A stretch of DNA of 62,220 bases, taken from NCBI GenBank assembly GCA_048882385.1, contig JBHLRQ010000005.1:1-62220 (forward strand), written 5' to 3'. The notes beneath the pieces are model-generated. The model saw nothing but the letters and a program-made list of their open reading frames with translations, searched no databases and was not told the DNA's origin. Below are positions 3,451 through 43,744 of the stretch, in pieces. Source of the DNA: Candidatus Thorarchaeota archaeon. GTDB taxonomy: Archaea; Asgardarchaeota; Thorarchaeia; Thorarchaeales; Thorarchaeaceae. How positions within the stretch are numbered: the first letter of the stretch is position 1; every line of letters starts with the position of its first letter. A program made the translations under genes and the position numbers.

Positions 3451-5637
3451 TTGAGAAAGCCATCCACGCCAGATGAAGATGAAATCGATGCCGCCCGTGT
3501 TGCAGACCAGCCAGTTGAACTCCTACCAAAGTCTGCTTTACCCTACCATCCACGAGTTGGCGATCAACTTGACCTTCTAGTAGACCTCAGTGTTGGTGTT
3601 GTCCTGGGTCGTTCAGAGTCATTCCACCGTAAGTACTACACAGGTGGTCTTGGAACTATTGGAGGAATCGCAGAAACTTCAGACGACATTCTAACTTCTC
3701 TCATGGGAATGCCAGTCAACCTTGACCTGATGGGTCCACATGTGATGTTTGTTGCAGGAAAGAGAGGATCAGGAAAGAGCTACACTCTAGGAATTATAGC
3801 TGAGGAGCTTGCTCTTGCTATGGAACGTAGGGAGATTGAGGTTGCAGCTGTTGTTGTTGATACTGTCGATGTCTTCAGACAAATGGTTGAGCCAAACGAT
3901 GAACAGACTGATCTTTTGAAGAAATGGGGACTTGAAACCAAGGGATTTCCAGTTGCGGTCTACATTCCTCGTCAAACATTCGTGGGGCTTCCGGACGAAG
4001 TCAAAAAGAAAGCTCGGCTATTCCCATTATCCATTGGACCCCGAGAACTTACGGTTTCAGATTGGGGTTATGTGCTCGAGAAAGGAGGTTCTCTAAGTAC
4101 TACGATGGAGAATCTCATTGGGGAAACCCTTGATAGTATTCGCAAGGGTTACACACTTGATTCAGGTGAGAAGGTGCCGCTGAAGCGTGATTTCAGTATC
4201 AAAGAAATGATCAGGTGCATTGAAACCAATCCTCAGATAATCGAGCTATACAAACCATCAACACGGACCGCATTAATTCAGAGATTGAAACGAGCTGATA
4301 GACTTGGAGTGTTTTATCCTGGAGGAACAAGCGCTCAAGACCTCGCAGTTGCTGGCCAGATAACAGTCATTGATGTTGCACCTCTGGGATCTGATGCAGA
4401 GGCTGTTCTAGCCATCCTCACTAACATGCTTTGTCGTCAAGTTCTTACATATAGGATGGCTTGGACTGATGAGGGGACAAGTGCTCGTGAGGAACTACCT
4501 CCGACTTGGCTAATCATTGATGAGGCTCATACCCTTGTTCCTAGGTCTGGACATACACCTGCAAAAGATGCCATTATTGGATATGCAAAACTTGGTCGTA
4601 GATTCGGATGCAGCTTGGTTCTGTGCACACAACAACCATCTGCAGTTTCAGATGATGCGATTTCCCAAGCGGACATCATCCTTTCACATTCGCTGTCTCA
4701 CGACAATGATATTCGAGCACTACAACAGAGAGCTCCTGCTGTAATGCCTGAACAATTCCGTGACAAAGTCTTCATTAGTAGTCTTCCACGTGGAGTGGCT
4801 CTAGTTTTTGATCAGAGTACTGAGAACAAACGTGGATTCATCATGCAGGTGAGACCTCGACTCTCACAACACGGAGGTACTGATAGACTCTCAGGTCTTT
4901 TTGAAGCTGTACGTTTACTCATCCCTGAAGATGCTGAGGAAGAATCCGAACTCGCTGAAGAAGTTGAAGTCGAACCTGAGGAAATAGTTGAAAAACTGGA
5001 GGCGGAAGTTGTTGAAGAACTCCCAGAGGTTCCGAGACCTCCCCTGAAACTCAGTAAGGAAGACTGGAAAGTTCTGGATGGATGGATGAAGGACTACATC
5101 AAGACACTCTTTGACCAGGAGAAGCAAGAGTATGACATCACTGATGAACCTGCTCCCCGCATTGAGGAACCCCCACCAGCGCTAAAGTCAACTGACATGG
5201 AATGGGACCTTGAACGAGTGCCAATCACCGAGCTTGATGTTGACCAGATACGGATTCGGAAATTCGGACCACTCTCCGCATTACTTCTCGGAAAAGCCAT
5301 GACACGACAGGTCCTGTATAGTCGTGCCTCACATGAGTTTCTGTTCTCATCAGAGAAGGATGTGCGGGAAACTCTACTGATAGAACGAGAGGGTGTCGAC
5401 TCACTTACTTTGATTGAAGACGTAACATCTGGGCTTCTCTCTGCTGGTATGTCACTGGATGAATTGATCCATGAGAGTGATTTCACCTTTGTCTGTTTTA
5501 GAATGGATGGATTGCGTGCGGCATTTACGGTGGGTATCAGTGAAGACATGGTTTCAGTACCAATTGTCGTGATTGGCGAAAATCGGAGTGCTGTTGGCAA
5601 GCTTGCTGGCCGTATCAGAGGAATTCTGCCCTCTTAG
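3451..5637 (+). CDS. HerA/FtsK-like (DUF87) P-loop ATPase with acidic linker and extra C-terminal domain
   Basis: Walker A GKRGSGKS, Walker B IIDEAH, GRRFG arginine motif, TQQPS. Confidence 0.85.
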   Translation: MRKPSTPDEDEIDAARVADQPVELLPKSALPYHPRVGDQLDLLVDLSVGVVLGRSESFHRKYYTGGLGTIGGIAETSDDILTSLMGMPVNLDLMGPHVMFVAGKRGSGKSYTLGIIAEELALAMERREIEVAAVVVDTVDVFRQMVEPNDEQTDLLKKWGLETKGFPVAVYIPRQTFVGLPDEVKKKARLFPLSIGPRELTVSDWGYVLEKGGSLSTTMENLIGETLDSIRKGYTLDSGEKVPLKRDFSIKEMIRCIETNPQIIELYKPSTRTALIQRLKRADRLGVFYPGGTSAQDLAVAGQITVIDVAPLGSDAEAVLAILTNMLCRQVLTYRMAWTDEGTSAREELPPTWLIIDEAHTLVPRSGHTPAKDAIIGYAKLGRRFGCSLVLCTQQPSAVSDDAISQADIILSHSLSHDNDIRALQQRAPAVMPEQFRDKVFISSLPRGVALVFDQSTENKRGFIMQVRPRLSQHGGTDRLSGLFEAVRLLIPEDAEEESELAEEVEVEPEEIVEKLEAEVVEELPEVPRPPLKLSKEDWKVLDGWMKDYIKTLFDQEKQEYDITDEPAPRIEEPPPALKSTDMEWDLERVPITELDVDQIRIRKFGPLSALLLGKAMTRQVLYSRASHEFLFSSEKDVRETLLIEREGVDSLTLIEDVTSGLLSAGMSLDELIHESDFTFVCFRMDGLRAAFTVGISEDMVSVPIVVIGENRSAVGKLAGRIRGILPS

Positions 5638-5703
5638 AACAGTTATGCCCTTAATGCTCGGCCTTATAAGCCCCTAAGCAAGTCTGCGTCTTGGTGCAAG
5701 GAA

Positions 5704-6063
5704 ATGACTCGGGAAGATATTCAACCTCCTGTCAACCTCAAAATCGCTACAATGACAGATTTAGCGAGAATGCTGGTGTCTTGGTCACAGAGAGACCGAC
5801 CCGCAAGCATGTTGTATTTTGAGCACAATGGAAAGCACATCTATGGGACTCTTATATCCAATCATGGTTACTTTGAACACTACGGATTACCACTCTGGGT
5901 CCATGCAGAAGGTGATGGTCCGCCAGAGGGGAGCTTCTTGGCTTATAGGGCTCGTCCGAAGGAAACCCTAGACTGGGTTGAATCCCTAGAAGGAGCTGAA
6001 CCACAGACAGTCCATCTACCAATCATCAAGCTCGCCAATAAACTTGAAATTCTTGACGTCTAA
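5704..6063 (+). CDS. Small conserved archaeal protein (resembles the 'cren protein' family)
   Basis: DLARML...YFEHYGLPLW...LPIIKL pattern recalled from that family; not verified by search. Confidence 0.5.
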   Translation: MTREDIQPPVNLKIATMTDLARMLVSWSQRDRPASMLYFEHNGKHIYGTLISNHGYFEHYGLPLWVHAEGDGPPEGSFLAYRARPKETLDWVESLEGAEPQTVHLPIIKLANKLEILDV

Positions 6064-6217
6064 AATGATTGATTATTGGTTACATGCCCTCAATTAAACG
6101 AAAACTCCCCCTCCTACCACGATTTGTCAACCCTGATGTCCACCTTCAATTTGAATCGCTAGACTCTTATCAAAGCTCATCTATATTCATGGTTGTTCGT
6201 ATTGGCGAGGGGAGACG

Positions 6218-7681
6218 ATGCCAGAAGACGAAGAAAGACCTGAAATAACTGACAAGATCCCAGCTGCGTTCAAGGAGGAATATGACCGACTAAAGGCAGA
6301 GCTTAATCGTGTCATTCCTGCAAAGAAGACGGATTCAAACATCCTGATAGCAACCTGGAACATCAAAGAGTTTGGAAGTTTCAGAGATGAATGGGTGACC
6401 AAGACCGGTGATACTCCAAAACGGAATGTGCGTTCACTGAAGTACATCACTGAGATTGTATCGAGGTTTGATGTAGTCGCAATCCAGGAGGTAACAGGGA
6501 ATCTCAGAGCCTTGAGACATATGCTTGAAGCTCTCGGTCCAGATTGGAGCCTCATGATGAGCGATGAGGTGAGAGGAACACGAGGCAACAAAGAACGCTT
6601 TGCATATGTCTTTGATACACGAAGAGTCAAACTGTCCGGTCTGGCGGGAGAGTTAGTCATACCCACCGAAACAATGACCAAAGTAGTAGAAGAGGAAGGC
6701 GAGAAGAAGAAAAAGAAGTTAGAGTTCCCAATTGAAAAGCAGTTTGCACGAACTCCGTACGCTGTTGGTTTCAAGACTCTGAACAAGACGTTCGTCTTAG
6801 TTACGTTTCACATCATCTTCGGTAAGGAGAGTGATAATGTAAAGCAGGTTAAAGAACGAGCAAAGGAGCTTCTTGTTATCGCTGAATGGCTCGCTGATTG
6901 GGCTACAAGAATTAACAAGTGGGAGCATAACTTGATAGTTCTTGGAGATTTCAACATCGACCGGGAAGGCGACAAGCTCTATGAGGCGTTCGTTGGTGGC
7001 GGATTGGACATACATCCGCACTTTCACAACCTTCCTCGAACAGTCCATGACTTAGACAACCCTCCTGACAAGAAGAAGTACTATGATCAGATAGCCTGGT
7101 TCATGGATAATGATGACAAACCAGCTCTTTCCATGAGATTCATGAAGGGCGGCTACTTTCAGTTTTGGCCCTGTGTGTTTGACAATCTCACGGAATCAGA
7201 AGTAGAGTGGCGAATGTCAGACCACTTTCCCCTATGGGCTGAATTCGAGGTGGATCCGGAAGAAGAGGAGGTTATCCCAACACTCCCCGTACCTTCTCAG
7301 GCAGATATTGACCGTAAGAAAGCAGACCGTGACGCATGGATTCGAGTGGCACAGACTTTAACTGAGCTAGAGAACGCCTATATCCTGTACATGGCTGATG
7401 CAGCAGGAAGCGGGTGGACTGTAGAACGCAAAGCGGACGAGTATCTGATGCAGTGGGTTTACAAGAAGCAAATTGTAGAGAAATTTGCTGAAATGTTGAA
7501 AGCCTCTAAGGATAATCTGAGCATCCCTTGCGACAATGCTAAGGAACTACTCTCTGTGACCAAATCGATACTTGAAGCAAAACCCGATGAAGACAAGAAA
7601 ACATTGGTGACGCTAAATGACCTGAAGACATCTATCAGACAGATGAACAAGTGGCCATTCTTGAGGAGGTGGTGTAGATAA
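6218..7681 (+). CDS. Endonuclease/exonuclease/phosphatase (DNase I-like) protein with about 140-aa helical C-terminal extension
   Basis: IATWNI, AIQEV, LGDFNID, YYDQI and SDHFPL catalytic motifs. Confidence 0.88.
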   Translation: MPEDEERPEITDKIPAAFKEEYDRLKAELNRVIPAKKTDSNILIATWNIKEFGSFRDEWVTKTGDTPKRNVRSLKYITEIVSRFDVVAIQEVTGNLRALRHMLEALGPDWSLMMSDEVRGTRGNKERFAYVFDTRRVKLSGLAGELVIPTETMTKVVEEEGEKKKKKLEFPIEKQFARTPYAVGFKTLNKTFVLVTFHIIFGKESDNVKQVKERAKELLVIAEWLADWATRINKWEHNLIVLGDFNIDREGDKLYEAFVGGGLDIHPHFHNLPRTVHDLDNPPDKKKYYDQIAWFMDNDDKPALSMRFMKGGYFQFWPCVFDNLTESEVEWRMSDHFPLWAEFEVDPEEEEVIPTLPVPSQADIDRKKADRDAWIRVAQTLTELENAYILYMADAAGSGWTVERKADEYLMQWVYKKQIVEKFAEMLKASKDNLSIPCDNAKELLSVTKSILEAKPDEDKKTLVTLNDLKTSIRQMNKWPFLRRWCR

Positions 7682-13623: not shown

Positions 13624-15339
13624 TCAGATTGTAAAATTGACGAACACAGTAGCACCATTCTTCATCCGTCCGGTATAGGCTCTCTGATAGGGTCCAAAAA
13701 GATCTGGAAATCCAGAGTTAATTGCCCACTCTATCCAAGACCAAGATACTTCTTGTCCAAGTTTGTTCTCTGCATATTGCCCGAAAGTCCAGCTAAGGTA
13801 CCTCTCAATATCCAATTTTAGAATCTGTAGTCTTTCATAATCCTTGCCTGAAACTACTTCAGCTTTCTTTTCGATGTCCTCATGAGCTCCAAGGAGATAT
13901 GAATGAGAGTCAATTATCATTTTATCCATTTCTTCCAAGTTTTCGTTCATCTCATCAAATCTCTGCTTCTTCCTGAACTTGGAGATCTTTCCCATTATAC
14001 TGAACATCTCTCTGCGATGGAGAACCTCCAATCCCTCTGACTCAAGTGTCTTGGCAAGGCTCTCATTCCATGGTGTGTTAAAGTAGACTCTTGGATATCT
14101 GATAAAAAGAGGAAATGGTATTTTCATTGCTTCTGCTGATGGAATCACTTGAGCATAGTATGCTGCTTCGCCTGGACCGCCTACATGCGCTACTGTCGGA
14201 ATGAGTGTATCGATGACAATCTGCCTTGAGTCCACTCGGGGTGATATGAGCAATGCAATCTCTCCCAAGAAAGGACTGTCCGCAGAAGTTTCAATCTCTA
14301 TGGGTTCAGAACAGGACGGACATTTTCCTTTCAATATTGCAGTAGATCCTCTATCCTCATAGTGAAGCTCTGTACGACTTTTGTTACAGCCTGCCTCCGG
14401 ACACTCATAGAAGAAGGGAACATAATCTGAAGTACGACGACCAATTCCTGAAGAGTAGCCACTTTCAGATATTAGGTCAGTAATCTCTCCGTGTGTTTTC
14501 AGAAAATGGTTTCTGTTTTCACGAGCAAGCATGAACTCCATTCCCTCAACCAAGAGCTCTCTAATCTCCCTGTGTGATGCCGTGAGCAAGGGTATTCCAA
14601 GGTTTCCAATAATGTTGAATAGATGACCAAGTATTTTCTGAGACCATTCTCCAAGTGTTTCTGAGGTTAAGAATGTCTTCCTGATAATAGATAGTGCCTG
14701 CTCAAGCCGTTCTTCGAATAGTAGTCGGGTGCTCCCTTCTAACACCTTGAATATTGGTCTATAGCTTGTCCGTAGATCCTCTTCGACTTGATTTAACCAA
14801 TCATTACTCGGGAGAGGCAACATACTCACAGGAGAATATTCGTAGTCTTTCGGCACGGGAAAACTCACTAGATTGCCTCCCGATCCCATGATTGGAGTCC
14901 TAATATTCGTCAACTCAGATTGAACAATATCGTAGTCCGCAACGCAGAAAAATGGAGTAAGGGGAACTCCTTTTTCCGAGCACAATGATGCAACTTGAAC
15001 GGCTGTGATTGGTTTATTCAGAATGAATGCTGGACCTCCCATCACAATTGTCTGGTGAGCTGATTCCACTGCACCTTCTGACAATGCATCAATATTCTCT
15101 CTCACCTTGGGTGTAAGAATCCCTAGATCCTTGTTGATGCTGAACAATGTCTTCCTCAGTAGAGCTGTTCTCTCAGGAATAAGCCAGAGAGTGTCTTTGT
15201 ACGAGTCTAAAAGAGCTGGAGCCCTATCAACAAGAGCATCCAAATAAATGGGTGGAGAATTGTACAATCTTTTTGCGAGGTCTGCTTTGTTTCCTTTCCA
15301 CACAAACTCTTGGTAGACATTGAATACACTAGGCTCCAT
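13624..15339 (-). CDS. bshC: BshC-like bacillithiol cysteine-adding enzyme (divergent, with Zn-ribbon insert)
   Basis: AHQ..MGGP..ILNK, FFCVADYD, SPRV, HVGGPGEAAYYAQ motifs; directly downstream of bshA; start ATG 15339 with GGAGG RBS. Confidence 0.8.
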   Translation of the reverse strand: MEPSVFNVYQEFVWKGNKADLAKRLYNSPPIYLDALVDRAPALLDSYKDTLWLIPERTALLRKTLFSINKDLGILTPKVRENIDALSEGAVESAHQTIVMGGPAFILNKPITAVQVASLCSEKGVPLTPFFCVADYDIVQSELTNIRTPIMGSGGNLVSFPVPKDYEYSPVSMLPLPSNDWLNQVEEDLRTSYRPIFKVLEGSTRLLFEERLEQALSIIRKTFLTSETLGEWSQKILGHLFNIIGNLGIPLLTASHREIRELLVEGMEFMLARENRNHFLKTHGEITDLISESGYSSGIGRRTSDYVPFFYECPEAGCNKSRTELHYEDRGSTAILKGKCPSCSEPIEIETSADSPFLGEIALLISPRVDSRQIVIDTLIPTVAHVGGPGEAAYYAQVIPSAEAMKIPFPLFIRYPRVYFNTPWNESLAKTLESEGLEVLHRREMFSIMGKISKFRKKQRFDEMNENLEEMDKMIIDSHSYLLGAHEDIEKKAEVVSGKDYERLQILKLDIERYLSWTFGQYAENKLGQEVSWSWIEWAINSGFPDLFGPYQRAYTGRMKNGATVFVNFTI

Positions 15340-15358
15340 TTGGAATTTCAATCCTCCC

Positions 15359-16519
15359 CTATGAAACTGCTTCCTCGAAAACTTTCTCATACATTGTTAC
15401 AATTTTTTCAGCAGAGAACGATTCCTCGACCCGTTTCCTACCAGCTTGTCCCAAACTCTTCCTTTTAGCATCATTCTCTAGTAGCTCAATAATAGTCTGA
15501 GCATATTCTTCTTGTTCGAATCCTTTGGTTACTGCACCATCTTTTCCTGGTCGCACAAGTTCAGGAATTCCACCTGCAGGTGTTGTCACTACTGGAAGAC
15601 TGCATGACATAGCTTCGAGGAGAACGAGTGGCATTCCCTCAAGAGTGGAATTCAGAAGAAACATATCAGCTGAACACATAATCTCTTGCATATTGCTCTT
15701 TACGCCCAAGAGGTGAACATTGTTACAGAGATCGAGAGCCTCAATTTTTCTTTCAACTTCTATTCGAGATGGGCCATCCCCAGCAATAATGAGCCTTACT
15801 TTGGGATAATGATCTGCAACGATTCTCATTATCTCTATTAATTCAACCACGCGTTTGACACCTCGGAAATTTGAAGCATGAAGCAGTATTTTTTCCTCTG
15901 GATTAATTTCCTCCGCCTCTGCATTTGTTCTCAAGCCAACACATCCGCTCTCTACGAACAATCTGACACCGTTGAGATGCTTGAACTGTGTCACATCAAT
16001 AAAATTAGGAATAACCTGGATCTCCCTCTCGATACCTAACTCCTCGTGAGCTTTCTTTTTCAGAAATTCAGAAACCGCAGTTACTGCATTTGCTTTCTCA
16101 ACTGTATGCTTTACTACTGGATTATATGCAGGATCAAGACCGAGAGTGTGCACATCAGAACCATGCAGTGTTACTACATAAGGTACACCAATGATTTCCC
16201 TGGCCATGTATGCAGACATGGCATGAGGGATTGCATAATGGGAGTGTACTAGATCCAGATTGGCATCTTTGGCTATCTTAATGATCTTAGATGTCAATGC
16301 CATAGCATATGGTGGACCAGTTGCCTTGAACAGAGGGTAGTCAAAACGATCTACTAGATCAACGTGAACGCCAGTCGTCTGCTCCCACATTAGGGAGAAA
16401 GGTCTCTGATAGGTGATGAAATGAATAATGTGCTTCCTATGTGCGAGTTGTTGACCTAAACGAGTTGCGAGGTAGCCACTACCCCCTACAGAAGGGTATA
16501 GATTTACTCCGATACGCAT
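15359..16519 (-). CDS. bshA: N-acetyl-alpha-D-glucosaminyl L-malate synthase (GT4)
   Basis: YPSVGGSG, YPLF, HSHYAIPHA, TLHGSD, HASNFRGVKRV, E-x7-E. Confidence 0.92.
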   Translation of the reverse strand: MRIGVNLYPSVGGSGYLATRLGQQLAHRKHIIHFITYQRPFSLMWEQTTGVHVDLVDRFDYPLFKATGPPYAMALTSKIIKIAKDANLDLVHSHYAIPHAMSAYMAREIIGVPYVVTLHGSDVHTLGLDPAYNPVVKHTVEKANAVTAVSEFLKKKAHEELGIEREIQVIPNFIDVTQFKHLNGVRLFVESGCVGLRTNAEAEEINPEEKILLHASNFRGVKRVVELIEIMRIVADHYPKVRLIIAGDGPSRIEVERKIEALDLCNNVHLLGVKSNMQEIMCSADMFLLNSTLEGMPLVLLEAMSCSLPVVTTPAGGIPELVRPGKDGAVTKGFEQEEYAQTIIELLENDAKRKSLGQAGRKRVEESFSAEKIVTMYEKVFEEAVS

Positions 16520-16626
16520 CCTTTCACTCTCCCTTCTCCATCCTTCCTCTGCCCCTTTAAGGCAAATGGTCTGGGAAAATACTTAGCTGCCAAACCTTGA
16601 TTAGATAGTGATAAACACGACTCTGT

Positions 16627-17295
16627 ATGAGCGGTTCAGATGAGGGAACCATTCTTGTTGTAGTTGCGCATCCTGATGATGAAACTCTCGGTGCAGGTGG
16701 TACAATAAGAAAACACACTGAGAACGGTATCCAAGTTGATGTACACTGCATGACTGGCAATGAGGAACGAAACTCTGAGCTCAAAGAGGCTTGTGGTATT
16801 CTTGGAGTTACAAATCTTTACCTGAGTGAACGTGATGATTTTGCAATTGGTCCTGATCTCACAAACGAGGTTGTAGGGGCTATTCTAAAGTCACGACCAA
16901 TGATTATCATTACGCACCACTCTGAAGACTATAACCGCAACCACCAGCAATGTGCTAGAATAGTAGATGAGGCTGCAGAATGGGCCTCACATGCAACTAT
17001 TTTTGAAAATGCACATAGAGTCGAGCGTATCTATAACATGGAGATAAACACACTGATCTCCAAACCAAATGTTCACGTCGATATAACGGAATCCTATCGA
17101 GCTGCACTGTCGGCACTCAAGAAACACAAGTCACAGACCAAAAAGGCAGATACATTCTACGAAAAGTTGTACGATGCAAGGACTCGGCTTCGAGGCGTTC
17201 AGGCAAATTGTAAACGGGCTGAAGCCTTTTCAATAACTCTTCCTCAACATGCTGGTCCATTCTATCGGGAAAATAGTGTCAATCTTTTGATCTGA
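16627..17295 (+). CDS. bshB: PIG-L/BshB-like Zn deacetylase
   Basis: VAHPDDETLGAGG, VDIT, HKSQ, RG...AEAF; divergent from bshA; second motif is NRNH instead of HxDH. Confidence 0.75.
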   Translation: MSGSDEGTILVVVAHPDDETLGAGGTIRKHTENGIQVDVHCMTGNEERNSELKEACGILGVTNLYLSERDDFAIGPDLTNEVVGAILKSRPMIIITHHSEDYNRNHQQCARIVDEAAEWASHATIFENAHRVERIYNMEINTLISKPNVHVDITESYRAALSALKKHKSQTKKADTFYEKLYDARTRLRGVQANCKRAEAFSITLPQHAGPFYRENSVNLLI

Positions 17296-17308
17296 TTGTA
17301 TTTATTTT

Positions 17309-17701
17309 CTAAGTGCCTTCAGATTTTCTTCTTCTGGCTGCAAGAAGTTGTTTGAGCTCTCCCATCATGCTCATACCTCCACCCATTGCACCAGCAGGTT
17401 TTGGAGTGGGGGCTTTTGCCATAGTTGGAATTGGTTCTCCTCCGGCTACTGCTGCAGGACCCTCCGCGGCTGCTGAAGGAGCACGCACTGCCATTGATGA
17501 CATCCTGCTCTCAAGTGCACTAACTTTACTCTCCAAATCCATGACCGAAATTTGGAGGTTAGTAATTGCCTCTGTCAGTTTTGTTGTAATTATGCTGACG
17601 ACTTCTCCAAGTTGACGAATCTTCTCTTCATTGGGGTCTTTCAGAGCCCATTCGAATTCGTCCATAATTTCTGCTTCAAGCTCTTGCTTTTCATCTGGCA
17701 T
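17309..17701 (-). CDS. Small coiled-coil protein with Ala/Pro linker and C-terminal VASP-FAB/WH2-like motif
   Basis: Heptads ..LTEAITNLQISVMDLESKVSALESRM; C-terminus GGGMSMMGELKQLLAARRRKSEGT; own TTTATA box at about 17744-17749 supports ATG 17701. Confidence 0.7.
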   Translation of the reverse strand: MPDEKQELEAEIMDEFEWALKDPNEEKIRQLGEVVSIITTKLTEAITNLQISVMDLESKVSALESRMSSMAVRAPSAAAEGPAAVAGGEPIPTMAKAPTPKPAGAMGGGMSMMGELKQLLAARRRKSEGT

Positions 17702-17760
17702 TATATTGACCCCGTGACTTAGGTTGAGAAGCTGGAGTTCCGCTATAAACCTTGTTTGCA

Positions 17761-35782: not shown

Positions 35783-37105
35783 CTAGAAGTCTGCTCCAGT
35801 TCTTCCAGAACCCCAAGAATCCATGGCCAACTTGAGTTCCTCATGTCCCTCTTCCTTAGCATATCTACTCACTGGAATCCCCTGGATTTTTGCATCCATG
35901 GCTTGTCTGAATGCAATGGCTCCAGCACGTGGTCCATTTGGATGAGCATGGATACCAGCTCCTGTTCCAATCACAATGTCAGGACCTAAATCATCTATGA
36001 CTTCTTCAACATGTCCTGGGCTGATACCACCACTCGGCATTGGGGCGGTCTGCTCTATGTTATGTAGGGGCATAATCATATCATGTGCAACATTGAGATA
36101 TCGCTCCTTGAGGACAGGTGCTTTTCCATAGGGCGCAGGAAACACCGTGATATCAGAACCACAGATTCGCGGAAGTTTCCCTGTAACAATATTAGATGAT
36201 ATGCCAACTATGGGTGAATAGGTCATCGCTCCTGTTACATCCATATGCGCAAGTAAGGGTACTTTCGGAGCAAGATTTTCACTAACATGCCGGAATGCTG
36301 AATATCCTACAGCAAGAAAATTGATCATCAACCCGTTCGCTCCCAATTCAATAGCCTTCTCCGCATTTTCAAACATTCTTGGAAGCCTATCAGTGATATT
36401 TACTGTATAGATTGTTTTCTCACCCTTCTCAGAATCTGCCCTATCGAGTGCCTCCATAAATCGTGGAATCCGGTCTTCAAGTGTATTGAAATCAGGATTT
36501 GCCAGTAGTTCGTCATCCTTTATGATATCCGCACCGCCAGCAGCCGCCTCATATGCGAGATCAGCGCCCATCTCGCAGGAAGTATAGACACAGGGCTTGA
36601 CCATGTTGTTCAAGATAGGTCTCTTCTTAATTTTCAACAGCTTTCGTAGACCCTTGATACCATATTTTGGACCCTTGAATCCCTTGAGCCAGCTCTTCGG
36701 GAATTTCATGTCTAAACACTTGATTCTACCATAAAGGGAGATGTTACCGATGACTGTACTAAGTAACATTGGGATCTGTTGTCCGAAATTCTCCCAGGGA
36801 TATGCAACCTGCATGATATACTGTCTTCTCTCGAGGTCTTTTGGGAAACTGTATTCATATTGAGGTACCTCATAGACGCCTATCACTTTAGCAACATGTC
36901 TTCTTCGAACCGCAGGGGTTTCACCAGGCACAAGAGTCCATGTTCCTGTACTCTGTTCAACAGCTGCATCATGAGCCAAACTCCTTGCATCCATGAAAGG
37001 CGGGAGTCCGACATAGTATGTACATATCACATACTTCTCTTCATCAATAGCATCAGGTAATGCATCAGGCAATGCATCGAGTGGAAGCTCTACCATTATA
37101 ATCAA
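35783..37105 (-). CDS. RuBisCO-like protein (form IV)
   Basis: EQSTGTW, KDDE, GK loop 6, SGG. The K177 equivalent is C (VKPC) and the R295 equivalent is M (AHMD), which argues against a true RuBP carboxylase. Confidence 0.88.
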   Translation of the reverse strand: MIIMVELPLDALPDALPDAIDEEKYVICTYYVGLPPFMDARSLAHDAAVEQSTGTWTLVPGETPAVRRRHVAKVIGVYEVPQYEYSFPKDLERRQYIMQVAYPWENFGQQIPMLLSTVIGNISLYGRIKCLDMKFPKSWLKGFKGPKYGIKGLRKLLKIKKRPILNNMVKPCVYTSCEMGADLAYEAAAGGADIIKDDELLANPDFNTLEDRIPRFMEALDRADSEKGEKTIYTVNITDRLPRMFENAEKAIELGANGLMINFLAVGYSAFRHVSENLAPKVPLLAHMDVTGAMTYSPIVGISSNIVTGKLPRICGSDITVFPAPYGKAPVLKERYLNVAHDMIMPLHNIEQTAPMPSGGISPGHVEEVIDDLGPDIVIGTGAGIHAHPNGPRAGAIAFRQAMDAKIQGIPVSRYAKEEGHEELKLAMDSWGSGRTGADF

Positions 37106-38478: not shown

Positions 38479-40080
38479 ATGAAACTAATAACCGAAGTAG
38501 CAAAAGATGCTGGAATCGATGAGAAACACCTCGAGAATTATGGAAGATATATGGCAAAAATAAATCTCAATGTTCGAAAAGAATTGGGCAAACGAAAAGG
38601 CAAACTGATTCTTGTAACAGCAACAAATCCTACCCCTGCTGGTGAAGGAAAAACAACCAATTCAATCGGTCTTTCTATGGCATTGAACGCGTTAGGACAC
38701 AATGCAGTTGTCACACTTAGGCAACCCTCTTTGGGTCCTGTTTTTGGTATAAAGGGTGGAGCAGCAGGTGGTGGCAAGTCTACAGTTGAGCCTTTTGAGC
38801 AAATCAACCTGATGTTTACTGGGGACTTTCCCGCAGTATCCGCAGCTGGAAATCTGCTTTCAGCAATGATTGACAACTACATTCACCACGATAAACAACC
38901 TGAGCTAGATGTCAGGAGAACCTATTGGCCGCGAAATTTGGATATGAATGACAGAGCTCTCCGGAAAGTGATTATAGGTCTAGGAGGTAGGTTTGACGGA
39001 TTCCCCAGAGAAGACAGCTTTGTAATAACTTCTGCTTCTGAGGTCATGGCAATCCTAGGTCTCTCAATGGACTATAAAGAACTGAAAGAGCGTCTGGGAA
39101 AAATCCTTGTCGGAAGGTCTGAACAACTCGAGGATATGTTCGCGAGGGATTTAGGAGCAGAGAAAGCAATGGCTGTGATTCTCCGAGACGCACTCAAACC
39201 AAATATTGTTCAAACACAAGAAGGGACTCCTGCCATGATTCATTCTGGTCCTTTCGCAAACATTGCTCACGGTACTAGCTCAATCATTGCTACAGATATT
39301 GCCTTGAAACTGTTTGATTACGTTGTGATAGAAGCTGGATTTGGAGCAGACTTGGGTGCTGAAAAGTTCTTCAACATAGTGACCAGAACCGGTAACTTTG
39401 ATGTTGATGCTTGTGTTGTTGTCACAACAATTCGTGCGCTCAAATATCATGGCTGTGATGATCTTGAGGCTGGATTCCCAAACCTTGAGAAGCACGTAGA
39501 GAATGTCAACAACTTCGGTGTGCCAGCTGTTGTCGCACTCAATCGATTTCCAGACGATACCGAAGAAGAGATTGACCTACTCCGTCAGTTCTGTAAAAGC
39601 AAAGGTTGGAGGATGGAAGTATCGGAGGTCTTCGCCAAGGGTAGTGAGGGTGGAAAGGCTTTGGGTGAAGCTGTCATTGAGGCAATCGCCAATCGTACTA
39701 GTAAGGGTATCAACTATACGTACGACCTGAAAGATCCTATCAAGACCAAGATTCTGAAGGTGGCTCAACAAATCTATGGGGCTGATGATGTTGACTACAC
39801 GACTGGTGCTAGTGGAAGGATACGGTCCTTCGAAAAACGAGGATATGGAAACCTACCCATATGCATAGCCAAGACCCAATTCAGTCTGTCCGACACAAGA
39901 AGTCTGAGATGTCGACCTTCACATTTCGATGTTGAGGTTAATGGTGTTGATGTAAGTAACGGTGCTGGATTCATTGTGGTGTATATGGGTGATATCAATC
40001 TCATGCCCGGGCTCCCAGAAGAACCAGCAGCCTTAGGAATGGATGTAGATGATGATGGGAACATTAGTGGAGTCTTCTAA
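38479..40080 (+). CDS. fhs: Formate--tetrahydrofolate ligase
   Basis: TPAGEGKTT, GIKGGAAGGG, GPFANIAHG, EAGFGADLGAEKF, AKTQ. Confidence 0.96.
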   Translation: MKLITEVAKDAGIDEKHLENYGRYMAKINLNVRKELGKRKGKLILVTATNPTPAGEGKTTNSIGLSMALNALGHNAVVTLRQPSLGPVFGIKGGAAGGGKSTVEPFEQINLMFTGDFPAVSAAGNLLSAMIDNYIHHDKQPELDVRRTYWPRNLDMNDRALRKVIIGLGGRFDGFPREDSFVITSASEVMAILGLSMDYKELKERLGKILVGRSEQLEDMFARDLGAEKAMAVILRDALKPNIVQTQEGTPAMIHSGPFANIAHGTSSIIATDIALKLFDYVVIEAGFGADLGAEKFFNIVTRTGNFDVDACVVVTTIRALKYHGCDDLEAGFPNLEKHVENVNNFGVPAVVALNRFPDDTEEEIDLLRQFCKSKGWRMEVSEVFAKGSEGGKALGEAVIEAIANRTSKGINYTYDLKDPIKTKILKVAQQIYGADDVDYTTGASGRIRSFEKRGYGNLPICIAKTQFSLSDTRSLRCRPSHFDVEVNGVDVSNGAGFIVVYMGDINLMPGLPEEPAALGMDVDDDGNISGVF

Positions 40081-40084
40081 TTAG

Positions 40085-40978
40085 GTGATTGTAATGTCTG
40101 AAGAAGTTGAACTAAAACCAATCTGCGAGGACCATGTCATCAAGGGTCGTAGACTATCGAACCGTCTGAGGAACGAGGTCAAAGATGAGGTTGAAAAACT
40201 CGTTAAGAAACACAAAGTTCCTCCCAAACTCGTTACAATTATCGTAGGTGAGGATCCGGGCTCAAAGATGTACGTCAAGATGAAACATAAGGCGTCAAAC
40301 AAAGCTGGTATCCTCTCTGAAAACTATGACCTGCCTGAATCCACAACTCAGAAGGAACTTCTCAAGCTACTCTCCAAACTCAATGATGACAAGAGGGTCC
40401 ATGGGATTCTTGTTCAACTGCCCCTCCCCAATCACATCGATGAGAAAACGATCATAGGGGCAATTGATCCTCTGAAGGATGTTGATGGCTTCTCTCCAAC
40501 AAACGTATACCGTCTCTTCTATGGAGAGGAGGATCTCAGCGCAGCGACACCTCATGGTATTGTCACAATACTTGATCGGATCGGTTGGAATGACCTATCC
40601 GGTAAGCATGCTGTTATCATCAATAGATCCAATATTGTTGGTAAACCTCTCATCATGCTTCTCTTGAACAGAAACGCGACTGTGACAGTCTGTCATTCAC
40701 GGACAAAGGATCTCTCATCCTTCACAAGACAAGCCGATGTTCTTGTGACTGCGATTGGTCGACGAACAAGCGATGGGGATCCATTCTTCATCACTGAAGA
40801 TATGATTAAGAAGGACTCGGTGGTGATAGATGTTTCAACTCCACATGGCGATGCAGACTTCGAGAAAATCAAGGAAAAGGCCATTTGTATCACGCCAGTA
40901 CCTGGCGGCGTTGGACCAATGACCATCGCAATGCTGCTAAAGAATGTCCTTGCTGCCTACATAGCACAGATTTCATGA
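40085..40978 (+). CDS. folD: Methylenetetrahydrofolate dehydrogenase/cyclohydrolase
   Basis: YVKMK, GILVQLPLP, KDVDG, RSNIVGKP, TPVPGGVGPMT. Confidence 0.95.
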   Translation: MIVMSEEVELKPICEDHVIKGRRLSNRLRNEVKDEVEKLVKKHKVPPKLVTIIVGEDPGSKMYVKMKHKASNKAGILSENYDLPESTTQKELLKLLSKLNDDKRVHGILVQLPLPNHIDEKTIIGAIDPLKDVDGFSPTNVYRLFYGEEDLSAATPHGIVTILDRIGWNDLSGKHAVIINRSNIVGKPLIMLLLNRNATVTVCHSRTKDLSSFTRQADVLVTAIGRRTSDGDPFFITEDMIKKDSVVIDVSTPHGDADFEKIKEKAICITPVPGGVGPMTIAMLLKNVLAAYIAQIS

Positions 40979-41049
40979 AGTGAATGATTTATCTCAAAGG
41001 TATGTTGTAGTCTAATGCACTATCCTTTGTATGGGGAAGTGGTTTCAGA

Positions 41050-42099
41050 ATGGAGATTGATATCAAACCAATTGACTTTCGAAGCGCTACAAGAGATGAG
41101 TGGAAACTGTATCATACATATCGCAGAAAGCAAATGGCCGAAGAGTTTCCTGGTGATCCAATTCTAGATGATGAACAAACAGAAGTTTGGATGCAATCTG
41201 ATTACGATGACTTTGAGGTCTTCTCCTATTCAATTACAAGACATGATAATCCTAACGAGATGATTGCCTATCTTAGATTGAGATATGTAAGCGAAGGTGC
41301 ACCATCATATCCTGGAAATGAGAACATCATGCGAATGATGTTGTATGTTCTCAAAGACTACCGAAGAGAAGGCATAGGTAGAAAACTGCTGAAACTTGCT
41401 GCTAACCTTGCCAAAGAACATGGAAAGGCAATCATGTCAACTGGAACGACCCAAGAAGATGGGCGGAAAGCCCTGAAAAAACTAGGCGCTAAGGAAGCCC
41501 TCACCATGAGGGAAACTCGTACTAATCTTGAAGAAATTGATTGGGCGATGGTCAACACATGGAAAGATGAGGGTCCCAAGCGGTCACCAGATTCAAAGTT
41601 GGAATTCTATACGAAAATTCCTGATGAGATCCTTGAAAATTATTGCAGGGTGTATACTGAGGTTTTCAATCAGGCGCCTATAGACGAATTACAGAGAGGT
41701 GATATTGTCTTCACCCCTGAAAAATGGAGAAAAGATGAAGAGAAGGCAGAAAAAACTGGAATAACATGGATAACAGCGATGGTTCGGGAAAAGAACGGTG
41801 ATATTGCTGGATTGACAGATGTGTATTATGAGCCCAAACATGCACCACTCATGTATCAAGCACTCACTGGAGTTCCGGAGAAATATCGTGGTAGTGGAAA
41901 GGGTAAATGGCTCAAAGCTGCAATGCTTCTAAAAATCAGTGAAGACTTTCCTGATATCAAAATTATTGCAACACAAAATGCAACCTCAAATGCTCCAATG
42001 CTTGCTATTAACGATCGCCTCGGATTCAAGGTTCATATGCAGCACTTCAGTTGCCAGATTGAAACAGAGGAGGTTGTAGATTATCTGAAAAAGAAATGA
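41050..42099 (+). CDS. Tandem GNAT acetyltransferase
   Basis: YRREGIG and YRGSGKG acetyl-CoA motifs; NAPMLAINDRLGF. Confidence 0.85.
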   Translation: MEIDIKPIDFRSATRDEWKLYHTYRRKQMAEEFPGDPILDDEQTEVWMQSDYDDFEVFSYSITRHDNPNEMIAYLRLRYVSEGAPSYPGNENIMRMMLYVLKDYRREGIGRKLLKLAANLAKEHGKAIMSTGTTQEDGRKALKKLGAKEALTMRETRTNLEEIDWAMVNTWKDEGPKRSPDSKLEFYTKIPDEILENYCRVYTEVFNQAPIDELQRGDIVFTPEKWRKDEEKAEKTGITWITAMVREKNGDIAGLTDVYYEPKHAPLMYQALTGVPEKYRGSGKGKWLKAAMLLKISEDFPDIKIIATQNATSNAPMLAINDRLGFKVHMQHFSCQIETEEVVDYLKKK

Positions 42100-42160
42100 T
42101 TGTGTAGTTCAGATTCAATAATAATGAACGTGCCCAAACGCTTTTGTAGACTGTCATCCC

Positions 42161-43744
42161 GTGCGGGCATCGGTGAATCTTGTGAAAGTAGTTGAGTGTG
42201 TACCCAACTTTTCAGAAGGACGAGACAAGAAGGTAATTGACGCGCTCTCAGAAGCCATCAAGAGTGTCGAGGGAGTCCGACTTCTTGATGTTGAATTTGA
42301 TCCAGATCATAACCGATCTGTCTTCACGTTCATTGGCGAACCGCAGCCAGTGAAGGAGGCTGCCTTGAAGGCTGCTGAACTTGCTGTTGAAAAGATCGAC
42401 CTGACCAAACATGAGGGTGCCCATCCACGAATGGGCGCTGTGGATGTGGTGCCATTCATTCCACTCCATGGTGTAACGATTGGGGAGTGCATTGAGCTTT
42501 CAAAGCAGTTTGGTGAGGAGTTCTCCAAGAAGTGCAATGTTCCCGTGTTCCTTTATTCAAAATCTGCGACACGACCAGACAGAGTTGATCTTCCAAACAT
42601 CCGAGAAGGCGAGTTTGAAGCTCTCAGAGAACAGATTGGTCAAGTCCCAGAAAAGGAACCCGACTTCGGACCAAACAAGATACACCCAACTGCAGGAGCT
42701 ACAGCCACTGGTGCTCGAAACTTTCTCATTGCAATAAACTTCAATCTGAACACAACGAACCTTGAGGTTGCGAAGATATGCGCTGATGCAGTTCGTGGCT
42801 TGACTGGTGGCTTTGTTAATGTGCAGGGCATTGGTCTTGACTTACCTGCAAAGAAATGTGTACAAGTATCAACAAACCTGACACATCCTCGAAGGACGAA
42901 GATTCACCAAGTGTTGGAGGTTGTAAAGAACGAAGCTCGTCGTTTTGGTGCCACTGTCGTTGAAACTGAGATTATAGGAATGGTCCCGCTCTTTGCACTC
43001 CTTGATGCACTCAGATATTACATCCAACCTGAGAGGCTTGATGAGGATATGATCCTAGACCTTTACTATCTGGGTGGAGGATCCGATCCAACTAAGAAGA
43101 CATTCACTGAGATGTCTATGATTGAGTTTGGCAACCAAGTCCGTCGAGCACGTGCGACCCCTGGTGGAGGAAGTGTTGCCGCAGCTCTTGGATCATTTGG
43201 AGCTGGTCTAGTTTGTATGGTCACTGGATTGTCAATCTCAGGTCGTAAGTTCGCTGGTATTAAAGAGGAAATGCGCGAACACAGGCACGCATGTGAATAC
43301 GACCGTGGAGTTCTAATGGACAACATCGAGAAAGACTCTGAAGCTTTTGATGTCGTGATGGAAACATTCAGGATGCCTGAGGAAACAACTGCTGAGAAGA
43401 AGAAGAAAGAGGTTGCTACCCAGAAAGCAACAATCGAAGCTGCCAATGTGCCTTTAAACACAATGCAGCATTCCTTCAACGCATTAACACATGCCAAAGT
43501 GGCTGCTGAGAAGGGGAATATCAACGCAATCACTGATGCTGGAGTTGCAGCTCATGCCCTCATGGCTGCAATAGAAGGAGCAGCACTGAATGTACGGATA
43601 AATCTCGGTAACATTACGGACAAGTCATTTGTTGATAAAACATCAAAAGCAGTAGAGAAACTGCTCACAGATGGTGCTAAGATTAAGGCTGAGATCCTAG
43701 AGGTTGTAGAAGCTCGTATGAAGAAGCTTGCTGATAACAATTAG
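42161..43744 (+). CDS. ftcd: Fused glutamate formiminotransferase / formiminotetrahydrofolate cyclodeaminase
   Basis: ECVPNFSEGR, DHNRSV, HPRMGAVDVVPF; C-terminal cyclodeaminase TPGGGSVAA, GNINAITD, LNVRINL. Confidence 0.93.
   Translation: MRASVNLVKVVECVPNFSEGRDKKVIDALSEAIKSVEGVRLLDVEFDPDHNRSVFTFIGEPQPVKEAALKAAELAVEKIDLTKHEGAHPRMGAVDVVPFIPLHGVTIGECIELSKQFGEEFSKKCNVPVFLYSKSATRPDRVDLPNIREGEFEALREQIGQVPEKEPDFGPNKIHPTAGATATGARNFLIAINFNLNTTNLEVAKICADAVRGLTGGFVNVQGIGLDLPAKKCVQVSTNLTHPRRTKIHQVLEVVKNEARRFGATVVETEIIGMVPLFALLDALRYYIQPERLDEDMILDLYYLGGGSDPTKKTFTEMSMIEFGNQVRRARATPGGGSVAAALGSFGAGLVCMVTGLSISGRKFAGIKEEMREHRHACEYDRGVLMDNIEKDSEAFDVVMETFRMPEETTAEKKKKEVATQKATIEAANVPLNTMQHSFNALTHAKVAAEKGNINAITDAGVAAHALMAAIEGAALNVRINLGNITDKSFVDKTSKAVEKLLTDGAKIKAEILEVVEARMKKLADNN

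Follow-up and report, generated by a model that had tools for sequence, protein, structure and literature searches.

A small coiled-coil protein of Thorarchaeota with a conserved C-terminal motif resembling the F-actin-binding block of Ena/VASP

Bundling of actin filaments by VASP requires both its F-actin-binding (FAB) block and tetramerization (PMC10340426). Mutation of the RRRK cluster in VASP abolishes filament binding, and monomeric or dimeric VASP gave no detectable interaction with F-actin, in contrast to the strong binding of the tetramer (PMC3003327). In human VASP, the FAB has been mapped to residues 259-276, for which a sequence of residues 259-278 is printed (PMC10340426), and the FAB itself has been proposed to be WH2-like (PMC3034019). 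Our analysis concerns a 62,220-nucleotide stretch of DNA from Candidatus Thorarchaeota archaeon (assembly GCA_048882385.1, contig JBHLRQ010000005.1, positions 1 to 62,220), hereafter called the window. A gene on its minus strand, at positions 17309..17701 including the stop codon at 17309-17311, encodes a 130-residue protein (P0001) that combines a predicted coiled coil with a C-terminal motif resembling the VASP FAB.

Actin regulation in Asgard archaea is so far described in terms of few protein families. A 2024 review (PMC12050087) and a December 2025 preprint (10.1101/2025.11.30.690169) mention no regulators of Asgard actin other than profilins and gelsolins. Thorarchaeal gelsolins and a Thorarchaeal profilin act on rabbit actin (PMC7444086, PMC8410842), with which LokiActin shares 58% identity (PMC12050087). 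In another archaeon, Pyrobaculum, the C-terminal peptide of arcadin-2 docks into a hydrophobic groove of crenactin (PMC5173319). Arcadin-2, which we compare by description only, is like the window protein in being archaeal and lineage-specific, and its short C-terminal peptide is the only actin-contacting element (PMC5173319). Unlike the window protein, arcadin-2 is encoded in the crenactin (arcade) cluster, depolymerizes by sequestering monomers, and has a peptide that relies on tryptophan.

The window protein resembles the EVH2 half of Ena/VASP in that a Gly run, an amphipathic helix and an RRRK-type cluster lie in a Pro/Ala/Gly-rich, presumably disordered region of a probable coiled-coil oligomer. 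The order of the modules is reversed relative to EVH2, because the coiled coil is N-terminal to the motif. The coil is also of the ordinary heptad type, whereas that of VASP is described as right-handed (PMC10340426). No homology is detectable beyond about 20 residues.

A preliminary description of this locus, made from the DNA letters alone, had proposed a protein composed of a coiled coil, a flexible linker and a C-terminal VASP-like motif. Reading from the ATG at 17701 to the stop codon reproduces exactly the translation quoted there, with APSAAAEGPAAVAGGEPIPTMAKAPTPKPAG as its linker (residues 74-104) and GGGMSMMGELKQLLAARRRKS as its tail, and the three-part architecture is as described. 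We aligned 65 family sequences (alignment A2), and the identity, composition and periodicity figures given below are based on this alignment. Five parts are distinguished: an acidic N-terminus, a block termed the N block, the rest of the coil, the linker and the C motif.

The C motif, GMSMMGELKQLLAARRRK, occupies residues 109-126 (17324..17377, minus strand) and consists of a Gly run, a predicted amphipathic helix and a basic cluster. Its mean pairwise identity is 0.78, and its length across the family is 16-18 residues. L116, L120 and R123 are present in all 65 sequences; M113, E115, K117 and A122 are found in 64, R124 and K126 in 63, L119 in 62 and G114 in 61. M112, M113, L116, L119 and L120 form the hydrophobic face of the helix, and the basic cluster R-R-R/K-K comes next. 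By contrast, the linker (residues 73-108; 17378..17485, minus strand) has a mean pairwise identity of 0.42 and varies in length from 2 to 51 residues. Conservation of the motif alongside variation of the linker was the comparison that the preliminary description had put forward as a check of its proposal. Among the identical residues of the N block and C motif, 54-57% are encoded by differing codons; thus, the conservation reflects selection on the protein.

The resemblance of this tail to VASP was evaluated in several ways. Counted by eye over the stretch from LM to K, 6 of 14 residues of the window protein agree with the human VASP block in an ungapped alignment, and 8 of 14 if one gap is allowed. 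The version of this block given in the preliminary description agrees with the printed sequence of human VASP 259-278 (PMC10340426). Written as a pattern, the Ena/VASP block is a Gly run, LM.EM..(M/I)(L/F)A and RRRK. We searched the C-terminal 43 residues of a family member called L047 against ~5.8 billion proteins, restricted to lengths of 229-2000 residues. Of 78 word-sharing candidates, one scored at E<=10, and it is a fish protein annotated as "vasodilator stimulated phosphoprotein a" (P0132; E=2.0, 26 bits). This protein carries WH1 and VASP_tetra domains, and the match lies at its FAB. The only database match of the L047 tail therefore falls at the block to which the motif had originally been likened.

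When the 65-sequence alignment was compared with fish VASP by using hhalign, only the FAB stretch was aligned, with 27 columns placed onto GGGGGGGGLMGEMSAIFARRRKVADTP at a probability of 75.8% and a pairwise E value of 2.3e-05. BLASTP against the same protein finds 9 of 17 positions identical for L047 and 6 of 14 for the window protein. A hidden Markov model (HMM) of the C motif, 29 positions long, assigns fish VASP 27.0 bits in total and 19.1 bits for its best domain. The larger value is inflated by a duplication in P0132. The record contains two near-identical copies of the FAB segment and repeated "DIIL.IQLSVSA" stretches in its gene model, and these repeats look like an artifact of annotation or assembly.

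None of 20000 shuffles of the whole VASP protein reached 19.1 bits (maximum 7.6). The 27-residue VASP segment alone scores 26.7 bits, which was likewise reached by 0/20000 shuffles (maximum 14.7). When the Gly run and RRRK were kept in place and shuffling was confined to the ten middle residues, the score of the real segment was reached by 6 of 20000 sequences. Thus, the likeness to VASP is specific in the order of residues, and is not merely a matter of composition. Among 12435 stop-to-stop open reading frames (ORFs) from the window and 72 related loci, the best score of a non-family sequence against the C-motif HMM is 7.2 bits. From these comparisons, the resemblance appears to be real but borderline.

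The best explanation that we can offer for the tail is that it binds the sides of the host's eukaryote-like actin filaments in the manner of a FAB, and we propose this only tentatively. Because the family retains both a basic cluster and a coiled-coil hub, each of which is required in VASP, actin is the leading guess. The docking of arcadin-2 on crenactin is an archaeal precedent for a short C-terminal helix that contacts an actin homolog, and the action of Thorarchaeal gelsolins and profilin on rabbit actin also speaks for this choice. According to this proposal, the protein would be an adaptor whose coiled-coil hub would oligomerize, and each chain would carry an Ala/Pro/Gly linker of variable length that ends in the conserved helix and basic cluster. 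The tail would act as a short motif that docks onto an acidic protein surface, most likely the side of actin filaments as with the Ena/VASP FAB. Single tails would bind weakly and mainly by charge, and the several tails on each hub would provide avidity, which could lead to cross-linking or bundling of filaments. If the N block binds another partner, then that partner would be tethered to actin.

A broader form of the proposal, which we consider rather doubtful, is that the protein corresponds, in minimal form, to the EVH2 half of Ena/VASP, that it either arose independently or is very old, and that it bundles or tethers Asgard actin. If actin binding is correct, the protein would be the first in Asgard archaea to bind actin without being a profilin or a gelsolin. 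Short linear actin-binding motifs that act through oligomer avidity would then not be a eukaryotic invention, and motif-based, avidity-driven control of actin architecture would have existed in archaea. A soluble protein of 130 residues with an 18-residue motif is a cheap candidate for experiments, and rabbit-actin assays exist from the work on Thorarchaeal gelsolins. If actin binding is false, the protein is still an orphan that is strongly conserved, separately transcribed and clade-defining, and both of its conserved ends point to specific partners.

Several observations weigh against actin as the target. An E value of 2.0 means that about two chance matches are expected in a database of that size, only 78 word-sharing candidates were scored, and L047 was picked as the most VASP-like member. 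The reciprocal search, in which the VASP block was compared with proteins of 30-198 residues, yielded three candidates, none at E<=10, and did not recover the family. A C-terminal query of 31 residues produced no matches in the PDB, and residues 91-130 gave no usable named match in the protein atlas. The family is found only in Thorarchaeota-type genomes, while actin occurs throughout Asgard archaea. Its invariant neighbors encode GlmM and bacillithiol-type enzymes of sugar and thiol metabolism, and none is cytoskeletal. Basic amphipathic helices also bind many acidic targets. Finally, the GAB and FAB of Dictyostelium reportedly "differ substantially" from their mammalian counterparts (PMC3034019). 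The FAB is therefore not conserved within Ena/VASP, so the motif is not an ancient actin-binding signature. Because of this, and because the family is confined to Thorarchaeota, convergence with VASP is more likely than shared descent.

The same observations bear on the possibility that the conserved tail docks on some other acidic partner, such as an FtsZ/tubulin-family protein, ESCRT-III, the ribosome or nucleic acid, and that the likeness to VASP is a coincidence between two basic amphipathic helices. The VASP match is borderline and not reciprocal, the range of the family is much narrower than that of Asgard actin, and no actin-related gene is present among the neighbors, all of which suit this alternative. 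A hub, an Ala-rich hinge and a conserved tail are also the layout of ribosomal stalk proteins, and the single sequence has a weak PDB match to bL12 via the Ala-rich hinge (E=0.2). However, there is no positive pointer to any alternative partner, and the sole specific database match of the tail is an actin-binding block. A tail of the ESCRT-III MIM1 type was considered and rejected, because by eye only three of six positions of the MIM1 pattern fit. We regard docking on another partner as about as probable as actin binding, and propose it just as tentatively.

A further alternative is that the tail is a membrane-targeting amphipathic helix, comparable to the C-terminal helices of MinD and FtsA, that anchors a coiled-coil scaffold at the inner face of the membrane. 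The hydrophobic face beside the basic cluster is consistent with this function. Peripheral binding would be the sole route to the membrane, because no transmembrane-grade window or signal peptide is found in the 65 members (maximum 19-residue hydropathy 1.54) and none of the 65 contains Cys. However, the hydrophobic moment of the tail is modest (at most 0.34 in 11-residue windows), aromatic residues are absent from it, and its conservation is near residue-exact, including G114 and E115. Helices that bind lipids usually conserve character rather than sequence. The near-invariance of a dozen tail positions thus suggests a specific protein contact and not a generic membrane helix, and we regard membrane anchoring as quite unlikely.

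Returning to actin, we asked how far the protein can be assigned to known actin-binding families. EVH1 (WH1, PF00568) has no match in P0001 at E<=10, although the fish VASP control scores 120 bits, and no Pro run in the 65 members exceeds 3 residues; the absence of EVH1 and of a true polyproline run had been expected from the preliminary description. The VASP tetramerization domain (PF08776) matches neither P0001 nor any of the 65 members. A G-actin site or LKKT-type motif, L-[KR]-[KRHN]-[TV], occurs in 0/65 members, and a conserved mini-motif in the linker, M-A-K-A-P-T-P, does not resemble the WH2-like G-actin site of the KLRK type.

The tail is like WH2 and thymosin-beta motifs in having a short amphipathic helix followed by basic residues, with hydrophobic residues at relative positions 1, 2 and 5 (by eye). 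In contrast to WH2, the residue before the basic pair, where the Leu of the WH2 motif would stand, is Ala in 64/65 members. Asgard gelsolins have WH2-like motifs (LRRV, LKHV and LVDV) that lie between the gelsolin domains (PMC9433394). The Pfam WH2 model (PF02205) does not match P0001, L047 or a third family member (P0127), and the VASP control is also missed; this test therefore cannot detect motifs of the FAB type. Given the lack of EVH1, polyproline, G-actin site, LKKT motif and tetramerization domain, the protein is, as judged by its sequence, outside both the Ena/VASP and the WH2 families.

These results also narrow the kinds of activity that would be plausible. The preliminary description had allowed for an actin bundler or elongator. 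There is no basis for the latter part of this claim because the protein has no site for recruitment of G-actin or profilin, and a role as an elongation factor was rejected for want of a monomer-recruiting site. Thus, only side binding, bundling or tethering of filaments would fit.

The other strongly conserved part of the protein is the N block (residues 12-47; 17561..17668, minus strand), which is predicted to form a helix, an invariant D-P turn and the start of a long helix. Its pattern is ..F-E-W-A-L-x-D-P..R.LGEVVSIIT.KL.EAI. The mean pairwise identity is 0.74, and its 36 residues align with zero indels in 65/65 sequences. F16, W18, L20, D22 and P23 are invariant in alignment A2. Position 17 is E in this alignment, and five additional loci have S, L or K there. 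The acidic N-terminus that precedes the block (residues 1-11) is variable, with a mean pairwise identity of 0.37 and a length of 6-17 residues.

A heptad coiled coil of the parallel type, with basic g and acidic e positions, is predicted for residues 28-72 (17486..17620, minus strand), so that the N block runs into it. Hydrophobicity across these residues has a period of 3.5-3.6, and the observed power was reached by 0/2000 column shuffles. Position a is Ile or Val in 70% of cases, position d is Leu in 76%, position e is acidic or Gln, and position g is Arg or Lys in 47%. This is the pattern expected of a parallel coiled coil with g-e' salt bridges. Heptads with hydrophobic a and d positions are continuous, as in the structural class of coiled-coil oligomers. 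The rest of the coil (residues 48-72) has a mean pairwise identity of 0.34 and a length of 18-29 residues, so its sequence drifts while the heptads are retained. The heptad coil described previously is thus present, but it was placed at the N-terminus, whereas it is central and follows a short helix and the D-P turn.

The linker is composed of 31% Ala, 19% Pro, 14% Gly and 10% Ser across the family. The mini-motif mentioned above is a conserved island within it (residues 94-100; 17402..17422, minus strand), where A95 is found in 52/65 sequences, A97 in 60/65, P98 in 64/65 and P100 in 47/65.

Because a conserved N block runs into a parallel heptad coil, the protein very probably oligomerizes, most likely with two or three chains. 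Residues that are beta-branched at position a, together with Leu at position d, would favor a dimer. The pattern R-h-x-x-h-E, which is a trimerization motif, occurs in 20/65 members. A profile of the full family matches 447 PDB sequences at E<=10. The best 60 of these 447 all lie within profile positions 17-110, their named entries are coiled-coil proteins or designs, with many known trimers among them. The matches listed include an archaeal S-layer stalk (8qox_B, E=2e-07), reovirus sigma-1, P22 gp26, Lpp, hemagglutinin HA2 and GCN4-adhesin fusions.

In a distant relative of 161 residues (P0126), residues 1-88 form the N module and are 59% identical, but a Peptidase_S74 "chaperone of endosialidase" domain (28 bits; cut-off 22) replaces the linker and tail. 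Either a natural domain swap or a chimera from assembly could account for this protein. The Peptidase_S74 chaperone domain acts on trimeric fibers. The predominance of trimers among the PDB matches and the fusion in P0126 together lead us to lean toward a trimer.

Searches for known families did not identify the protein. With the single sequence, Pfam, NCBIfam and the PDB give no significant family, and only weak noise from coiled coils or low complexity is seen. Pfam searches with each of the 65 members likewise produced weak matches only, mostly to coiled-coil families. A profile of the N block finds no relative in the PDB (best E=0.081).

Some JGI records name family members "Lpp," after the Braun lipoprotein. 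The two share a short coiled coil in which Ala, Ser and Leu are abundant, and weak matches to PF04728 (Lpp) occur in 15/65 members (best E=0.00062). Unlike Lpp, the family has neither a signal peptide nor a lipobox Cys, and the host is an archaeon without murein. Identity with Lpp was rejected, because no lipobox Cys (0/65) and no N-terminal hydrophobic segment is present, and the N-terminus is acidic. By these features, the name is an artifact of the coiled coil.

Baculovirus P10 is another small protein that begins with a coiled coil and ends in a basic C-terminus, with a proline-rich middle between the two. P10 associates with host tubulin and forms fibrils; its coil drives aggregation, and the basic C-terminus is needed for fibrils (bioRxiv 10.1101/2025.06.19.660566). 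The model for this family (PF05531, NPV_P10) gives sub-threshold matches to 9/65 members (best E=0.022), of which P0127 scores 15.4 bits against a cut-off of 29.8. Unlike the window protein, P10 is viral and has tubulin as its partner, and no match to our family is found in phage records.

The three-part layout shared with P10 (bioRxiv 10.1101/2025.06.19.660566) raises the possibility of self-assembly, in which the basic tail of one oligomer binds the acidic N block of another to yield fibrils, a meshwork or condensates. The charges are complementary, with a net charge of -7 for residues 1-30 and +3 for residues 109-130, and the N block and C motif are the two most conserved parts of the protein. 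A promoter that is conserved and near consensus also accords with such a role. However, the P10 matches are sub-threshold similarities of coiled coils, and conservation of both ends is equally expected if each end binds a separate partner. We consider self-assembly unlikely.

The family is small. A word-indexed protein search retrieved 287 related proteins at E<=0.01. The best 120 of these 287 are 111-158 residues long and 65-100% identical to the query; their named records are mostly "hypothetical protein" of Thorarchaeota or Promethearchaeota, with one partial record labeled Bathyarchaeota and the few JGI records named "Lpp." An exhaustive HMMER scan of 1.84 billion cluster representatives of any length found 11 proteins at E<=0.001, all of 85-161 residues, and detected no longer, fused form of the family. 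In the protein atlas, the whole protein matches only clusters of hypothetical proteins from Thorarchaeota or Promethearchaeota, and a tblastn search of phage and plasmid records found no family match.

A scan that used one genome per species yielded 72 loci. By title, 50 are from Thorarchaeota, seven from Promethearchaeota and one from Hermodarchaeota, 12 are labeled "uncultured archaeon" and two "archaeon." Both conserved modules are intact in 67/72 loci; three others are cut by contig ends, one is masked by Ns, and one (L053) is frameshifted. In L053, from a Thorarchaeota genome (10131-10424), the frameshift lies within the linker, and reading on in the next frame gives the C motif ..NLMGELKSLLSARRKK... 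The frameshift may be a sequencing error or may reflect a decaying gene. Homologs in lineages without actin had been named in advance as evidence against an actin role, and none was found outside Asgard-type genomes. On the basis of these searches, the protein is a Thorarchaeota-specific, strongly conserved orphan. We found no description of the family or of a VASP-like Asgard protein in the literature, in a search that covered publications apart from their supplementary tables.

The gene has the features of a separate transcription unit. A TATA box, TTTATA, lies at 17744-17749, 48 nucleotides upstream of the ATG at 17701, and is preceded by a conserved BRE-like stretch GCAAACAAGG; together they form a predicted archaeal promoter (17744..17759, minus strand). 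We compared the 90 nucleotides upstream of the start in 61 related loci. A TTTATA-type box is present in 58 of the 61, mostly 46-50 nucleotides before the ATG and in the conserved context ACAAnnTTTATAGC, and the other three have TTAATA at this position. This conservation bears out the earlier suggestion that the gene has its own TATA box. The promoter is conserved and close to consensus, and the gene is accordingly predicted to be transcribed separately from it. A scan for bacterial-type promoters and terminators is not relevant to archaeal DNA.

The start codon is also supported by this comparison. A Shine-Dalgarno-like GGGGT, read from the sequence, lies 9-13 nucleotides before the ATG (17709..17713, minus strand), and an element of the GGGGT, GAGGT or GGAGC type recurs at a similar distance in related loci (by eye, uncounted), with GGGGT or GAGGT about 10-14 nucleotides upstream of the ATG. 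A longer ORF of 150 residues begins at an ATG at 17761 and overlaps the stop of the upstream gene. It was rejected because the comparison of 61 loci identifies its extra 60 bases as promoter. Since these codons cover the conserved promoter, ATG 17701 is the likely start of the gene. An antisense ORF of 100 residues (17313-17615) was also rejected, because conservation tracks the frame on the minus strand.

The gene resides in a consistent genomic context. The upstream gene encodes the archaeal phosphoglucosamine mutase GlmM (17761-19158, minus strand; 522 bits, cut-off 439), and glmM is directly upstream on the same strand in 70/70 loci that include the start of the gene. A gene for a deacetylase of the PIG-L/BshB1-like type converges from downstream in 71/72 loci, with the orientation checked in 69/69. 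In the window, this BshB1-like PIG-L deacetylase lies at 16627-17295 on the plus strand (85 bits, below the cut-off of 182). BshA (15359-16519, minus strand) scores 373 bits, above its cut-off of 274, and a BshC-like gene (13624-15390, minus strand) scores 77 bits, below its cut-off of 266. The bacillithiol-type gene set and glmM, at 13624-19158 of the window, are collinear across Thorarchaeota loci.

This arrangement suggests that the protein might serve its neighbors, as a scaffold or regulator of GlmM or of a bacillithiol-type thiol pathway. The near-universal presence of glmM and the PIG-L/BshB-like gene, and a BshA that exceeds its curated cut-off, fit such a function. However, the gene has its own conserved promoter, and the collinearity extends over 12 kb across the clade and takes in unrelated genes for an aminotransferase, OMP decarboxylase and a Ras-like GTPase. 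With the region frozen across the clade and a promoter of its own, the position of the gene says little about its function. We know of no coiled-coil partner in the GlmM or bacillithiol pathways, and we view this role as very improbable. When the four alternatives to actin binding are taken together, they outweigh it. None of the four is backed by positive evidence of its own.

Pfam detects no gene for actin or another cytoskeletal protein in the 62-kb window. A Ras-family small GTPase is encoded at 25210-25758 on the plus strand (Pfam Ras, E=1.8e-49). In the 54 loci that extend this far, its identity is 78-93%, and it is more conserved than the neighboring enzymes. The gene is followed by an ORF of 193 residues (25821-26402) that has no family match.

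Most related genomes lack, at the corresponding position, a stretch of ~5 kb (19954-24845) that may be a variable island. It contains an ORF of 416 residues with one 30% match in the 72 loci, a gene for an MBL-fold protein found in 5/72, and an ORF of 843 residues found in 0/72. Neither the 416-residue nor the 843-residue ORF has a match in Pfam, NCBIfam or PADLOC.

A HerA-like ATPase is encoded at 3451-5637 on the plus strand, where it matches the PADLOC HerA and mad8 models with E values of about 1e-17. An ORF of 119 residues follows, and then a gene for a protein of the endonuclease/exonuclease/phosphatase family (6218-7681, plus strand). The region from 3451 to 7681 could be a repair or defense module.

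No tRNA genes or Rfam matches were found in the window. A homolog of the RuBisCO large subunit is encoded at 35783-37105 on the minus strand. Genes for formate-tetrahydrofolate ligase, FolD and formiminotransferase-cyclodeaminase (38479-43744) lie close to it.

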